DNA from: a bacterium
Lineage (GTDB): Bacteria; Patescibacteriota; Microgenomatia; Curtissbacterales; GWA2-41-24
DNA length: 64,000 bases
Assembly (NCBI GenBank): GCA_021813125.1
Contig: JAKALT010000005.1
Location: 107-64,106, forward strand
Direction of reading: 5' to 3'
This document shows, one piece after another, positions 5,117 to 9,413 of the stretch. The translations under genes and the position numbers were made by a program. The notes below the pieces were generated by a model. That model searched no databases, had not been told where the DNA came from, and worked only from the letters and a program-made list of their open reading frames with translations. Each line of letters starts with the position of its first letter. Position 1 is the first letter of the stretch.

Positions 5117-6154
5117 TCAAAAAGAAGAATTTGTTGTCATTCGCAAAAGTTCTCTAGCAACTTCGTTCACCCCGCACTTAGTAACAGATGGAAGTGTGCT
5201 TAATTTCTTGTTTGTATGTTTTTGATCAATATATGCCTTATTCACCCCAAACCAAATTGGTACGATTTTGAAATCGTTCTCATTTCTAATATGGTTTTCC
5301 ATTACTTTTAATTCTTCTCTGCATTGCTTATTTTTTTTTCGTTTATCAAAAAACTTTCTTGAAAGTATTGGTATTCCAAATTGAGACAACTCAACCCCCT
5401 CTTTGAATTGACTTTTGACCGTTTTTTTACTTGAATGAAATTGAATTTCGTCAAACCAACAATTCTTACCCTCCCCAAGAAGGTAATTTGTAATACCTCT
5501 TGCTATAGTTTTCTTGTCTTCAGATGCATGGCAAATAAAATAATCAAATTGAAGAACTCTTCTAGGATTGGTGTCTTCTCCGTAGTCGATATCCTGAGTT
5601 TTGTTTATGGTTTTTTGGGATAATTTCTCTTTGGTTGGAGGGAATAGGTTTTTAAAAAGTGAAAGTCCGATCCCGAATATTTTGACTCTTTGTTGGTCAT
5701 AGGAGCAAAGCACTCTATCTTCTCCAGGTTCATCAGCTAAGCCTAAACAATAGAGGAGATCTGTTAATTGTTTTTCGGTTGTGTTTTCAGGGTTATAGCA
5801 GTAAACCTCCTTATCATTAATTGTATCAAAATATAATTTCCTCAATTTTCTTTCAACATCTGTGTACATCCGGAGATTTTTATTGAAGACCGAGATTAGT
5901 ACGATCAGGAAGTCAATATTATCTTGTGCTTTCATTACAGTTTTTCCTGTAAGTTCTAAATCTAAGCCTTCAGAAATAAAATTTCCACTTATTAAAAAGC
6001 TTTTTATAAAATTGAACCCATCCTGACTTATTATTTGAGGAAACTTTGTTCCATTCACTGATTGCAATCTGTCGAGCAGGAATTGGAGTTTTTCTAAACC
6101 TCTTTTCTGTTTCCAAAGGTTTATTTCATCACCTGAATATGAATTTGCACTCAT
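5117..6154 (-). CDS. TIR-domain protein (N-terminal ~200 aa unknown region + C-terminal TIR)
   Basis: C-terminal FDYFICHASEDKKTIARGITNYLLGEG...WFDEIQF...GVELSQFGIPILS...IVPIWFG matches the bacterial TIR fold signature (F/Y-D-x-F-I-S-H-x-x-E-D); start ATG overlaps the upstream gene's stop (ATGA at 6151-6154). Confidence 0.7.
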   Translation of the reverse strand: MSANSYSGDEINLWKQKRGLEKLQFLLDRLQSVNGTKFPQIISQDGFNFIKSFLISGNFISEGLDLELTGKTVMKAQDNIDFLIVLISVFNKNLRMYTDVERKLRKLYFDTINDKEVYCYNPENTTEKQLTDLLYCLGLADEPGEDRVLCSYDQQRVKIFGIGLSLFKNLFPPTKEKLSQKTINKTQDIDYGEDTNPRRVLQFDYFICHASEDKKTIARGITNYLLGEGKNCWFDEIQFHSSKKTVKSQFKEGVELSQFGIPILSRKFFDKRKKNKQCREELKVMENHIRNENDFKIVPIWFGVNKAYIDQKHTNKKLSTLPSVTKCGVNEVARELLRMTTNSSF

Positions 6155-9138
6155 TTTAGTTTTTCGACTAAGCTAATTGCATCCCTTAAATTTTTAGCTT
6201 GAATACTTTTCGCGAATGTGTTGAGGGCTAATTCTAATCTCTTACTAAACCAATTAATGTTGTTAATCGCTTTATTTTTATCAGCCCATGCTTCGACTTT
6301 GTCGAGCGCTGATTTTGAGAGCAGGAAGTTTTCTCGCACTACGAATGCGATAGTTATGCGCCAGAGATAATTAACATATTCCCAGTAATCTTTTTTCTTG
6401 ATGATTGAAAGAGAAAAATCTAAAAGATCTATGATCTGTTTTAGGTACTTTTCATCGCTTAATTCGATGAGTGGTTTTGCGAATTTCATGTAGTCAAGCT
6501 CAAGTTCTAACTCTCCAACAGAATGGGCACCTTCCTGTCGTTGGTAAGGTTTTGCTGAAGATTTCAAAATTTCGAAACGCCAAGCGATGGCTTTTTCGTT
6601 GTGGAAAACAGAAATAAGGAGTGCATTGGCAGTGTCGGATAATAGATTTCTTATTTTTGGGTTCCAGAGTTTTTTAAGAAAAGCTTCATCCGCGTAGTTT
6701 GAAGGTGACAGATATTTTTCTAAATTTCCCAGCGAATACTCACGATCGGAGTCATTTAAAAGTGAATCGGTAACAAATGATTTCAATACGTCTTTTGGAC
6801 TAGTAAGATTTTCAAATAAGTTAGAAAAATAGATGTATGTTTGTGGAATAAGGTATCTTGCATCATTATTTTTATCGAGCATTATTTTGTTGACGGTAGT
6901 AAGTTCTTGGTCTGTGACACTTTTGAGAATTTCTTGAATGACGTTTAGGTCGCTACTGTATGCAAGGGGAATAAAGTTGATAACCTTTTGACGATTTTTG
7001 GGCGTTCGGAGAGTTTCTGGCGAGAGTCTGTGAATTACCTGCAGTACATTTGAAAAATACCCGGCTATAGAACTAATGGTGTACTCGCCGGATTTGGTTT
7101 TTTGGTCTTTATAACGGACAATAATTTTATCTGGGTCAATCATTGTTAGATTACTGTCAATAGCAAGGCTAAGGAGCCGTTCTTTTTCCGATTCTTTCCA
7201 TTGGTTTTCAATTATGTTTTGATTTTCTATAAAGAAGCGAAATACTTGTGGGAAGTATTGCCCTTCTGTTGGAGGGCTAAGGTATTCTTGAAATTGCTTG
7301 TAAATTTTTACTTCTTGCTGCTTTTGATAGTCGTCATATTTTGGAAAGGTTTTTGGATCGGCTGTTATCTCAAGCTCTATTCCTTTTTTCAATACAGCTT
7401 CTCCTTGCTGATTACCGACTTGGGGTGCGAGACGTATAGCTTCGGCAAGTGTGTAACCAGCATGATGATGCAAAGTGTTCGTAAATATTTCTTTCAATTC
7501 TCCTATGTCTTCTGGTTTTAGAAGAACGGCTATTACACCTTCAATATCATTGATAAATAGGGTGTTTTTTTGTTCTGCTGAAAGCCCTTGTATCGTTTTT
7601 AATAGTTCTTCTAAATACTTAGGACTTTTGGATTGTACAATTTGAGTAAGTTGTTGTAGGAAATAAGATTTACCGGCGTTGTAGTTGTGTACTCCAATGA
7701 ATGCGTTAAGAATAATTTTCTTAATAATATTAATTACATGTGGGTTGATATTTTTTTGAATATTGTCAATTAACTCTTTGTCAGCCTGTTTTTCCTTATT
7801 GTTAAAAATTGATTCTTTGTCTAAAAATTGGTGAATGAAGCGTGGATTATCAGCAATGTTTTGGAGAAGTGTTTTGATTCCTTGTGATGAATTAATTGCG
7901 TATAAGGCGTTGCGTGCATAGATGTGAGCGGTGTCATCTGTAATTGCTTTTATAAAAAAAGTAATGGAATCAGCAGAATTTGGATCAATTTCTTTGCACA
8001 TGTTGATGAACGCTTCACGCACTAGAGAATCGGGACTTGTAGCATTTTTTTGAACTTGGCGAATGATGTCAGTTTCACCCTTGAAGTTTTCTAGGGCTGC
8101 AAGAGCGTGTCGTTGGAGGACCCCGTTATTGTTTTCATTGTTGGCGTATTTAATAAGTTTTCCTTGCCAATATTCTTTCTCTTTTGGTGTTATGGCTTTG
8201 TGTTTGTGTTGAAGCATACCGTTAATCGTTGCCGCAATATTCCCTTGGAGTATGTAATCTTTGTTATCTGCTTGTGTCTTCAGAAATCGATAAATCTCTT
8301 CATCGACAAACTTAAACAGGTTGAGATAAGCCCAGACAGGGATCCAATACTTTCTGTTTTGATAAGAATCAAAGACAAGATGGAAAAGTTTAGTTTTGTT
8401 GTTTTTTGAAATTGAATCTGAAGCAGAAAAAATGAGAGTTTCAGCAAGCTGATCTTCTAGTGAGTCAGGATTCTTTTTGATGAAACTTATGAGCCAGTCA
8501 ATAAAAGACTCGGGATTTTGTTCGAGAAGAAAGCGTAATGTTCCTGTCCATGAAGGGATTAATATGGTTGGGCCTGTTCCCGAATAGAATATGAATTTTG
8601 CGGCAGTTTTAATCACGTCTTTTTGATTCAGAATATAATCTGCTGCAAGGTATTCAGTGAGGGTGTGATGCGTCCATTTGACTGTAATTCGTCTTTCAGT
8701 TCGGATAATTGAGATAAGTTGAATGTCGTGGAGGTATTTGGCAGATATCTCTTTTGGAGCCTTTATCTGTTTGAGAATGTTGTTGAATTCTAAAAGAGAT
8801 AACTGATCAGTCTGGATGAGTTCGAATACAAGTGAAAGTTTTTGGAATGGTTCACGCAGCTTTTCATATTCACGAACGACTTTGTGATAAAAGTAGGTAT
8901 AAAAGCCGAAACGAGAGAATCTGTTAGGTTTAGTTATTTTAAGAAAGTTTTTAAGTAGGTAAAAGTTGTTGGGAAATGAAATAAAACTGTTTCCCCAATC
9001 ATGGAACCAAAACTGTTCAATGATGGAGTCAATAATATTAGTGGAGTACCCCAACCCTGTAAGCTCTTCGCGTATTTCTTCATTTGATAGCAAATCTGGG
9101 TTATCAAATAACATAGTTTTTCGCGTATAGTTTAGCAC
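6151..9138 (-). CDS. Large (995 aa) alpha-helical/HEAT-like repeat protein, partner of the TIR protein; no canonical P-loop
   Basis: Uninterrupted 995-aa ORF, translationally coupled to the TIR gene; helical-repeat-like composition; the only GKS (YNAGKSY) lacks a proper GxxxxGK[ST] context. Confidence 0.55.
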   Translation of the reverse strand: MLNYTRKTMLFDNPDLLSNEEIREELTGLGYSTNIIDSIIEQFWFHDWGNSFISFPNNFYLLKNFLKITKPNRFSRFGFYTYFYHKVVREYEKLREPFQKLSLVFELIQTDQLSLLEFNNILKQIKAPKEISAKYLHDIQLISIIRTERRITVKWTHHTLTEYLAADYILNQKDVIKTAAKFIFYSGTGPTILIPSWTGTLRFLLEQNPESFIDWLISFIKKNPDSLEDQLAETLIFSASDSISKNNKTKLFHLVFDSYQNRKYWIPVWAYLNLFKFVDEEIYRFLKTQADNKDYILQGNIAATINGMLQHKHKAITPKEKEYWQGKLIKYANNENNNGVLQRHALAALENFKGETDIIRQVQKNATSPDSLVREAFINMCKEIDPNSADSITFFIKAITDDTAHIYARNALYAINSSQGIKTLLQNIADNPRFIHQFLDKESIFNNKEKQADKELIDNIQKNINPHVINIIKKIILNAFIGVHNYNAGKSYFLQQLTQIVQSKSPKYLEELLKTIQGLSAEQKNTLFINDIEGVIAVLLKPEDIGELKEIFTNTLHHHAGYTLAEAIRLAPQVGNQQGEAVLKKGIELEITADPKTFPKYDDYQKQQEVKIYKQFQEYLSPPTEGQYFPQVFRFFIENQNIIENQWKESEKERLLSLAIDSNLTMIDPDKIIVRYKDQKTKSGEYTISSIAGYFSNVLQVIHRLSPETLRTPKNRQKVINFIPLAYSSDLNVIQEILKSVTDQELTTVNKIMLDKNNDARYLIPQTYIYFSNLFENLTSPKDVLKSFVTDSLLNDSDREYSLGNLEKYLSPSNYADEAFLKKLWNPKIRNLLSDTANALLISVFHNEKAIAWRFEILKSSAKPYQRQEGAHSVGELELELDYMKFAKPLIELSDEKYLKQIIDLLDFSLSIIKKKDYWEYVNYLWRITIAFVVRENFLLSKSALDKVEAWADKNKAINNINWFSKRLELALNTFAKSIQAKNLRDAISLVEKLK

Positions 9139-9206
9139 CTTTGAACCCCATAAGCAGCATAAGGTTCAATTTTAAGACCTATTACAGAAACAGTAGCTTG
9201 AAGATA

Positions 9207-9413
9207 TTAAGGAATTAAATCCTTAAGAGGTACTTTGAGAGCTAAAGCTATTTTGTGTAATGTCTTTAAAGAGGGGTTTCTTAAACCGCTTTCAATTTCG
9301 CTGATTGAAGTCAGATCCATCTTAGATTTTTCAGCTAATTGTAATTGGGATAGCTCTACCTTTTTCCTCAATTTTCTAATTCTCTCACCAACATTTTTGT
9401 AAATAGTAGCCAT
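9207..9413 (-). CDS. XRE-family helix-turn-helix transcriptional regulator
   Basis: 68 aa; RIRKLRKKVELSQLQLAEKSKMDLTSISEIESG is a typical HTH_XRE motif; 68 bp upstream of the 995-aa gene on the same strand. Confidence 0.7.
   Translation of the reverse strand: MATIYKNVGERIRKLRKKVELSQLQLAEKSKMDLTSISEIESGLRNPSLKTLHKIALALKVPLKDLIP

Follow-up and report, generated by a model that had tools for sequence, protein, structure and literature searches.

A TIR-coupled relative of bacterial NACHT proteins without the nucleotide-binding domain: a candidate defence cassette in a Curtissbacterales genome

A 64,000-nucleotide stretch of a Curtissbacterales genome (contig JAKALT010000005.1, positions 107 to 64,106; hereafter the window) carries on its minus strand three neighbouring genes, for a 68-residue XRE-type helix-turn-helix (HTH) protein (9207-9413), a large helical-repeat protein referred to here as the core (6151-9114) and a 345-residue TIR-domain protein (5117-6154). 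A preliminary description of the stretch had placed the three open reading frames (ORFs) exactly where the ORF list has them, but it had not recognised the large protein and had set it apart from AVAST/STAND proteins. That assignment has to be revised: although the core has no P-loop, it is homologous to NACHT proteins over ~900 residues and is, on the evidence of its alignments, an offshoot of the NLR-like (NACHT) family without the nucleotide-binding domain (NBD). The three genes very probably form a defence cassette, and we put at roughly 0.6 the probability that it is an abortive-infection-type defence in which an NTPase-less NLR-like receptor works with a TIR effector.

A word-indexed homology search with the core returned 42 relatives in two length classes, of ~986 and ~1168 residues, the longer having a TIR_2 domain fused at the C-terminus. 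An exhaustive profile search starting from these relatives, against 1.84 billion cluster representatives, gave 434 relatives, 271 of them at E <= 1e-30. It also revealed a third length class, of ~1310-1435 residues, in which the region aligned to the window core begins only near residue 185. Among the matches listed, 69 of 69 of these N-extended proteins have a Walker A P-loop of the GK[ST] type (e.g. [AGS][ED]PGxGK[ST]) and about 60 of the 69 have a Walker B of the form hhhhDxhDE. The motif D[GAS]hDE is the signature that sets NACHT apart from other STAND NTPases (10.1101/2022.07.19.500537). One of the NACHT-bearing relatives, P0086, is matched by the Pfam NACHT model over residues 51-196 with 38.1 bits against a cutoff of 26.7.

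The window core and P0086 share 30% identity across 904 residues (BLASTP, E 2e-99). More generally, profile positions 9-985 align to residues ~185-1165 of the NACHT-bearing proteins with E values of 1e-80 to 1e-175, and residue ~9 of the window core pairs with residue ~184-188 of these relatives (~188 in P0086), right past the NBD. Beginning as it does directly after the NBD, the alignment makes the window core a homologue of everything that follows this domain in NACHT proteins. The NBD itself is missing from it: a regular-expression search found no Walker A GxxxxGK[ST], Pfam gave no NACHT or AAA match, and a Walker B with the NACHT signature D[GAS]hDE is absent. To that extent the earlier observation that the protein has no P-loop, SIR2, Macro or SLOG domain stands, none having been found by the Walker A expression, Pfam, PADLOC, NCBIfam or the structural model. 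Nor was any match to a housekeeping family, which the preliminary description had proposed as a check on the core, found.

The core had been described as a protein of 995 residues. An ORF of that length, starting from the GTG at 9138, does exist, but a protein of 987 residues starting from the ATG at 9114 is more likely because the database copy and all homologues begin there (MLFDNP...). Its sole Pfam match is HEAT_2 (E 2.6e-6), and its AlphaFold2 (AF2) model, with a mean pLDDT of 89.6, is all-helical except for two small hairpins. The first of these lies within residues 83-162, which have a helix-strand-helix-helix-hairpin-helix pattern ending in the nearly invariant W147-x-H149-H150-TLTEYLAA. 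This pattern, together with the position of the segment in the alignment to the NACHT relatives, suggests that residues 1-165 (8620-9114, minus strand) are the post-NBD helical/winged-helix (HD1/WHD) part of the NACHT module, and that the HEAT/ARM-like alpha-solenoid that makes up the rest (residues ~166-987; 6154-8619, minus strand) is the repeat region and presumed sensor. The conserved histidine of the winged-helix region was considered as a possible contact for ADP and rejected, since the NACHT-bearing relatives have FEN.EFQE at this point, without a histidine.

A neighbour-joining tree was made of 146 full-length cores. The 67 sequences with Walker A all lie outside the single clade formed by all 79 sequences without it, which are cluster representatives at 50% identity. 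Their ORFs are intact, at ~950-1040 residues (longer where an effector is fused), and remain so in A+T-rich genomes and at identities down to ~30%. The persistence of intact ORFs of ~985 residues at such divergence argues for selection. The clade also has a clean, constant N-terminal boundary and many nearly invariant residues. A search by profile and tblastn found no NACHT NBD in the 64-kb window, nor in the flanks of the NBD-less loci. The idea that a neighbouring P-loop gene supplies the NTPase was also rejected, as the zeta-toxin-like gene beside the window cassette is present at no other locus and no NACHT NBD was found.

The position directly after the core is occupied by different modules in different members. 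Loci for a census of effectors were gathered by looking up genes and by scanning genomes and metagenomes; a complete core 3' end was required and duplicates were merged. An effector module was found at 48 of about 52 distinct NBD-less cores. In 20 cores the module is fused at the C-terminus (9 TIR domains and 11 helical modules labelled Rx4H), and in 28 it is a separate downstream gene that starts between -41 and +5 nucleotides from the core stop, a gap of -4 being the commonest split arrangement (19 of 31 before duplicates were merged). Three further cores end with their contig at the core stop, and only one (at locus L074) has no effector module. The separate partners are TIR proteins (seven, plus that of the window), proteins of 230-250 residues with an invariant ECKNY motif (13), and a heterogeneous 'LGL' class (seven) whose members share an 'h-x-x-L-G-L/I' motif and in four cases finish with a transmembrane (TM) helix.

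The Rx4H module is ~140 residues long, and R90, F93 and H95 (R-x4-H) are invariant in seven sequences; its PADLOC matches, to Cas13a (0.032) and PDC-S64 (0.0045), are weak. The ECKNY proteins have only sub-threshold matches, to Mrr_cat (0.0059) and PDC-M36A (2e-4). The NACHT-bearing relatives have a uniform C-terminal module with a D...E-x-K pattern, and one relative, P0077, has a fused Mrr_cat domain that passes the Pfam Mrr_cat threshold. The family PF28130 (DUF8371), for which the literature search found no paper, is annotated on two of the NACHT-bearing relatives, P0086 (locus L035, 1663-5664) and that at L033 (257-4291); it may cover the C-terminal D...ExK module or part of the solenoid.

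Toxic modules that replace one another at a constant place usually mark a sensor-effector defence protein. Their exchange in the present family implies that the TIR protein of the window occupies an effector slot. The functional link between core and TIR that had been proposed from the window alone is strengthened by the relatives, in which a TIR domain is fused to the C-terminus of the core or a TIR gene overlaps its stop codon, and the pairing of core and effector is kept across about 50 distinct loci. In the window the core stop and the start of the TIR gene overlap as ATGA (6151-6154, minus strand), as had been described, and the arrangement is that of translational coupling. What is conserved in the core-TIR pair is the effector position and not the 345-residue protein itself. 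In the Gottesmanbacteria locus the split TIR gene is followed by a gene for a Trypsin_2 protease whose N-terminal segments are hydrophobic (L001 9469-10761; L003 9254-10546), and a trypsin-like gene precedes one NACHT-bearing relative (L034 5684-6799). Such a protease is possibly a third component at some loci.

The assignment of the 345-residue protein as a TIR protein was confirmed by Pfam TIR_2 (PF13676; residues 206-305, E 3.4e-11, 44.1 bits against a cutoff of 28), and with the matches to the Protein Data Bank (PDB) the domain can be placed at residues 203-312 (5219-5548, minus strand). Among solved structures it is closest to the bacterial TIR domains 7uxr, 3h16 and 8g83 (AbTIR), at E 1e-8 to 1e-9. 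Within PADLOC it matches PDC-S66 (8.6e-19) and ThsB (ThsB1; 2.6e-12), as similarity at the level of the domain only, and PDC-S66 also matches fused and split TIR domains of the family (2.7e-7 and 3.8e-10). In the HMMER alignment to 7uxr, E281 (in QCREEL; 5312-5314, minus strand) falls on the glutamate of the '...yEL' motif, which makes it the candidate catalytic glutamate.

The N-terminal ~200 residues of the same protein (5549-6154, minus strand) had been said to match nothing recognisable, and indeed no confident family match was found. They contain the motif LLYCLGLADEP (residues 133-143), reminiscent of the 'LGL' partners. When the seven 'LGL' partners alone, excluding the window protein, were made into a profile, it scored this part at 14.3 bits, whereas the maximum over 3000 shuffles was 9.6, and the score was above those of all the other effector classes. 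A comparison of the 'LGL' partners with this part by hhalign was weak (E 0.017), and in pairwise BLAST with the TM-type partners only the 11-residue motif was common to both. These similarities are suggestive of a shared 'LGL' docking domain to which a TIR domain has been added. The identical 345-residue gene was present on eight contigs of one population, each time after the core gene, and the identical locus was found in several samples.

A mechanism can be proposed from these observations. The 987-residue core would derive from a family with the order NACHT, helical/winged-helix segment, HEAT-like repeats and C-terminal effector, from which the P-loop NBD has been lost. Its solenoid would bind a phage-derived ligand, presumably a phage protein, and the ligand-bound core would gather the TIR domains or lift their inhibition; from the established biochemistry of TIR domains, the TIR domain would then most likely hydrolyse NAD+. 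The XRE-HTH protein probably represses the toxic operon by way of TTTGGCA/TGCCAAA repeats at its own promoter. In the absence of an NTPase, activation must be ligand-templated or proceed through a pre-formed oligomer, which is plausible because DSR2 and Dsr1 set a precedent. For the clade as a whole, whose members come mostly from metagenome-assembled genomes (MAGs) of the candidate phyla radiation (CPR; Patescibacteria), a more general proposal is that plug-in effectors (TIR, Rx4H/HEPN-like, nuclease-like and membrane proteins) are fired by ligand-driven assembly without an NTPase and that split effectors dock through an N-terminal 'LGL' adaptor of the kind suggested for the TIR protein of the window. 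This we advance tentatively, at somewhat less than even odds.

Several points weigh against an NBD-less receptor of this kind. A Walker A mutant of bNACHT01 lost defence, so that NTP binding is essential there (10.1101/2022.07.19.500537), and a functional receptor without an NBD is consequently not a given. The functional reading is built from homology, the loss of the NBD, the clade, the exchange of effectors and the gene neighbourhood, and the tree that defines the clade is a simple distance tree, midpoint rooted. The core has no PADLOC match, and searches with its fold gave generic HEAT/ARM solenoids and no specific defence protein. The assignment of E281 is disturbed by an adjacent insertion of 4-5 residues, which displaces it in the alignments to 8g83 and 3h16 and in that made with MAFFT, and the tryptophan usually found four residues before the catalytic glutamate is replaced. 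The N-terminal half of the TIR protein is modelled with pLDDT <50, and the 345-residue protein is nearly an orphan in the homology search. Among the other effectors, identity of the Rx4H module with HEPN was not significant in Pfam, the PDB or PADLOC, leaving a label based on the motif, and identity of the ECKNY partners with Mrr or restriction endonucleases was set aside as sub-threshold, 'nuclease-like' being used for them on weak evidence. One distant member, at L005, lies between the ATP-synthase operon and dnaE without an obvious island, unlike most loci.

The core might instead be an accessory or decoy subunit of a full-length NACHT paralogue encoded elsewhere, or the cassette might be an addiction or exclusion module of an integrative/conjugative element. 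The post-NBD segment that has been kept could still dock onto a NACHT oligomer. Type IV secretion system (T4SS) genes flank four loci and large serine recombinase genes are found at the window, L022 and L023, so that both recur beside the locus, and an HTH gene next to a toxic effector also fits a layout of the toxin-antitoxin type. No gene for a NACHT NBD was present in the window or in any flank examined, however, and the NBD-less cores come with effectors, which in 20 of about 52 are fused to them, as an autonomous receptor would need. We therefore regard both versions, taken together, as unlikely. The lack of relatives on viral contigs says nothing for or against addiction by an integrative/conjugative element; a phage origin of the family was rejected on that result and because the core has no match among the PHROGs.

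In a Thoeris-like arrangement the TIR protein would be the infection sensor and would synthesise a signal from NAD, and the effector activated by that signal would be the large protein or another gene. This would account for the match of the TIR domain to the PADLOC ThsB models (2.6e-12), and the membrane protease encoded after the TIR gene at L001 and L003 could in principle be such an effector. The core, however, lacks SIR2, Macro and SLOG domains and any other domain known for binding signals or for killing. Rx4H, nuclease-like or TM proteins fill the TIR position in other members, which fits an interchangeable effector and not a conserved sensor or synthase, and a nuclease-like module stands at the same C-terminal position in the NACHT-bearing relatives. 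We consider this arrangement improbable.

That the core is a truncated, non-functional NACHT gene and the adjacent TIR gene a leftover is very improbable. A domain that is essential in the bacterial NACHT proteins tested is missing, as decay would have it, and the winged-helix region, with conservation of 0.58-0.69 the best-conserved part of the NACHT-bearing relatives, is at 0.41-0.49 among the less conserved parts of the NBD-less clade. The latter difference also fits the loss of constraints coupled to the nucleotide. A remnant is hard to reconcile, on the other hand, with 79 representatives in a single clade having intact ~985-residue ORFs, a constant N-terminal boundary and nearly invariant residues, with effector modules that have diversified inside the clade while tight coupling (4-nucleotide overlaps) was kept, or with the recurrence of the identical locus in several samples. 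An ordinary cellular HEAT-repeat scaffold with an unrelated TIR neighbour, to which the exclusively eukaryotic scaffold and transport HEAT proteins returned by the fold searches and the L005 member between ATP-synthase and dnaE genes might point, is scarcely credible, being already contradicted by TIR domains fused in nine distinct cores and encoded by overlapping or adjacent downstream genes at eight more, by the homology to NACHT proteins, and by a patchy, island-borne distribution beside restriction-modification (R-M) systems, type I R-M genes lying within the flanks of eight distinct loci and directly adjacent in several.

The first gene of the cassette encodes, as had been thought, an XRE-family HTH protein (Pfam HTH_3, E 1.7e-15, 57.2 bits against a cutoff of 23), which also matches the PADLOC control-protein (2.4e-14) and capH (2.5e-11) models. 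It is separated from the core gene by 92 nucleotides, counting from the ATG at 9114, instead of the 68 given previously. Upstream of it, three TGCCAAA/TTTGGCA half-sites (9436-9467, not assigned to a strand) include a perfect palindrome, TTTGGCA-N4-TGCCAAA, at 9450-9467. This palindrome occurs once in the window; it is 37-54 nucleotides away from the HTH start on the upstream side, next to a -35-like TTGGCA. On this sequence pattern the half-sites are a plausible autoregulatory operator, to which the HTH protein would bind. The accompanying sigma-70-like promoter, TTGGCA-16-TATGGT (9414-9441, minus strand), is a match to the consensus at 9 of 12 positions, and such matches are no more numerous in the region than shuffled sequence would lead one to expect.

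An HTH gene often accompanies the core, though where it lies and which way it points differ between loci: co-directional with the core gene in the window, it is next to the core and divergent at L004, L010/11, L014, L017 and L021, and downstream of the effector gene at L022 and L023. At the five distinct loci with the divergent arrangement the ~68-residue HTH_3 gene is accompanied, directly upstream of the core, by a gene for a 152-residue PLDc_2 (Nuc-like) protein (L004 7215-7879; L010/L011 6950-7905; also L014, L017 and L021). In this module, whose copies are 54-67% identical to one another, the PLDc_2 gene lies on the far side of the HTH gene. The module is absent from the window, and could serve as an auxiliary nuclease or be a small system in its own right. 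Two of the NACHT-bearing relatives, P0090 and P0102, have a MerR/HTH_17 domain fused N-terminally, ahead of NACHT (E 5e-8 and 2e-8), a fusion that parallels the separate HTH genes beside the NBD-less cores.

Where the source genome is named, the relatives come mostly from CPR/Patescibacteria MAGs (Gottesman-, Levyi-, Woese-, Curtiss-, Moranii- and Roizmanbacteria). Several are in other bins: L009 is in a genome labelled Planctomycetota (GCA_052360605.1, Candidatus Wunengus), and L013, L017-L019, L022, L023 and L025 are in third-party-annotation MAGs labelled Gammaproteobacteria/Pseudomonadales. These members keep CPR-like neighbours (T4SS pilin/TrbL/VirB4 and type I R-M genes), and either horizontal transfer on a conjugative element or mis-binning or mislabelling may be the reason. 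A GmrSD-type gene follows one NACHT relative. The distant member at L005/L006 (P0035; 8001-11674) is found on an 876-kb contig with a 223-residue partner that is weakly TIR-like.

The accessory island in which the cassette had been placed is apparent from the recombinase and from the G+C content, which is 0.32-0.38 across 1-13 kb and mostly 0.40-0.47 past 14 kb. Both of the neighbours named in the preliminary description, the zeta-toxin-like gene (3943-4644, plus strand; Pfam Zeta_toxin, E 1.5e-33) and the large serine recombinase gene (11845-13491, plus strand), were matched in Pfam. The latter overlaps the start of the ychF GTPase gene (13448-14527, plus strand) by 44 nucleotides, and the G+C content climbs just past there, so that this is probably where an integrated element ends on the right, its integration site being the 5' end of ychF. 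As the window opens inside the island, the left edge is out of view. An Rfam scan of 1-14000 gave no RNA element.

The zeta-toxin-like gene is followed by an ORF of 55 residues that overlaps its stop as ATGA (4641-4644); the two (3943-4808, plus strand) are convergent with the TIR gene and may be a toxin-partner pair in an unusual gene order. No homologue of the pair was seen at the other loci of the core family. A terminator-like hairpin with a T-run (4734-4748, minus strand), located by pattern match only and possibly the terminator of the cassette operon, lies ~370 nucleotides 3' of the TIR stop and within this convergent ORF (4641-4808). Further to the left, a co-oriented trio (195-3817, plus strand) encodes a DUF3800 protein (191 residues), a SWIM zinc-finger protein (249 residues) whose N-terminus matches the PADLOC candidate PDC-S62 (1.7e-15), and a 605-residue protein with no match in Pfam, PADLOC, NCBIfam or the PHROGs. 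This cluster could be a second candidate for a defence module within the island. The interval from the cassette to the recombinase includes genes for a DUF4352 protein with a hydrophobic N-terminal segment (9591-10163, plus strand; phrog_806, 1.9e-33, with a weak Sie-like match) and for a Cys/His-rich protein of 195 residues without a family match (10435-11022, plus strand).

NLR and STAND receptors are thought to depend on a nucleotide-driven switch for oligomerisation and activation. Here a large and conserved clade has dispensed with the NBD while retaining the sensor and an exchangeable effector slot, and so provides a natural experiment on the need for that switch. If the proposal is correct, the STAND nucleotide switch is dispensable for pattern recognition of the NLR type, and the clade defines an undescribed defence family. 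The clade extends the recent finding that STAND sensors are reused by defence proteins without an NTPase, as with Avs7 and Dsr1, and adds a candidate defence family for CPR bacteria, which current defence models cover poorly. The versions in which TIR is fused (~1168 residues, one gene) offer compact constructs for the study of ligand-templated TIR activation.

In its proposed working the cassette resembles the sensor-effector proteins of the NLR, Avs and DSR types. Among known systems, Thoeris also has a ThsB-like TIR domain in a small operon. The view that the window does not encode Thoeris nevertheless holds: Pfam, PADLOC and NCBIfam showed no ThsA partner (SIR2, or Macro/TM with SLOG) in the core or its neighbours, and in the relatives of the window core other toxic modules replace TIR, which makes its position an effector slot. 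PDC-S66 aligns to the TIR part only (profile positions 125-252 of 282) and is a single-gene TIR candidate without a large partner, unlike the window cassette. The Avs (AVAST) proteins likewise combine a repeat sensor for phage proteins with an exchangeable effector and reside in defence islands, but in them the effector comes first, at the N-terminus, followed by a STAND ATPase in the middle and a TPR-like sensor at the C-terminus, whereas the window system has no ATPase and its effector comes after the sensor.

DSR1 and DSR2 resemble the cassette in architecture, not by homology: they too pair an alpha-solenoid sensor with an NAD+-consuming domain and have no STAND NTPase. DSR2 consists of a SIR2 NADase and a HEAT-repeat sensor and is activated by direct binding of the phage tail tube protein (PMC11263360). 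Their SIR2 domain is N-terminal, whereas in the present family TIR is at or after the C-terminus and, in the window, is encoded in trans; the window proteins gave no match to SIR2 and none to the PADLOC DSR models, and no DSR structure was among the top fold matches. Dsr1, whose sensor is shared by the STAND protein Avs7, confers defence although it has no NTPase (PMC13581612). The sharing of a sensor by Dsr1 and Avs7 is the same evolutionary pattern as that seen between the window core and its NACHT relatives. No description of the NBD-less clade was found in the PADLOC v2 models or in the literature searched (HEAT with TIR systems and CPR defence candidates), and surveys seeded with the NTPase (PMC13581612) would not retrieve it.

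The nearest known system is the bacterial NACHT (bNACHT) family, in particular those relatives from the profile search that have HEAT-like repeats and a nuclease-like C-terminal module, such as P0086, P0088 and P0098, and that have the same post-NBD helical/winged-helix segment and the whole of the solenoid. There, too, the effector is at the extreme C-terminus, an architecture that is the rarer one in bacterial NACHT proteins (Kibby et al., 10.1101/2022.07.19.500537), and the effector repertoire is the same (TIR, restriction endonuclease, HEPN and TM). The clade of the window differs in that the domain by which NACHT is defined, the P-loop NBD bearing Walker A and the D[GAS]hDE Walker B, is absent; the effector of the clade is often a separate, translationally coupled gene, and the PADLOC NLR models do not match. 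The core is thus not a NACHT NTPase in the strict sense, yet by alignment it is demonstrably an evolutionary derivative of the NACHT family.

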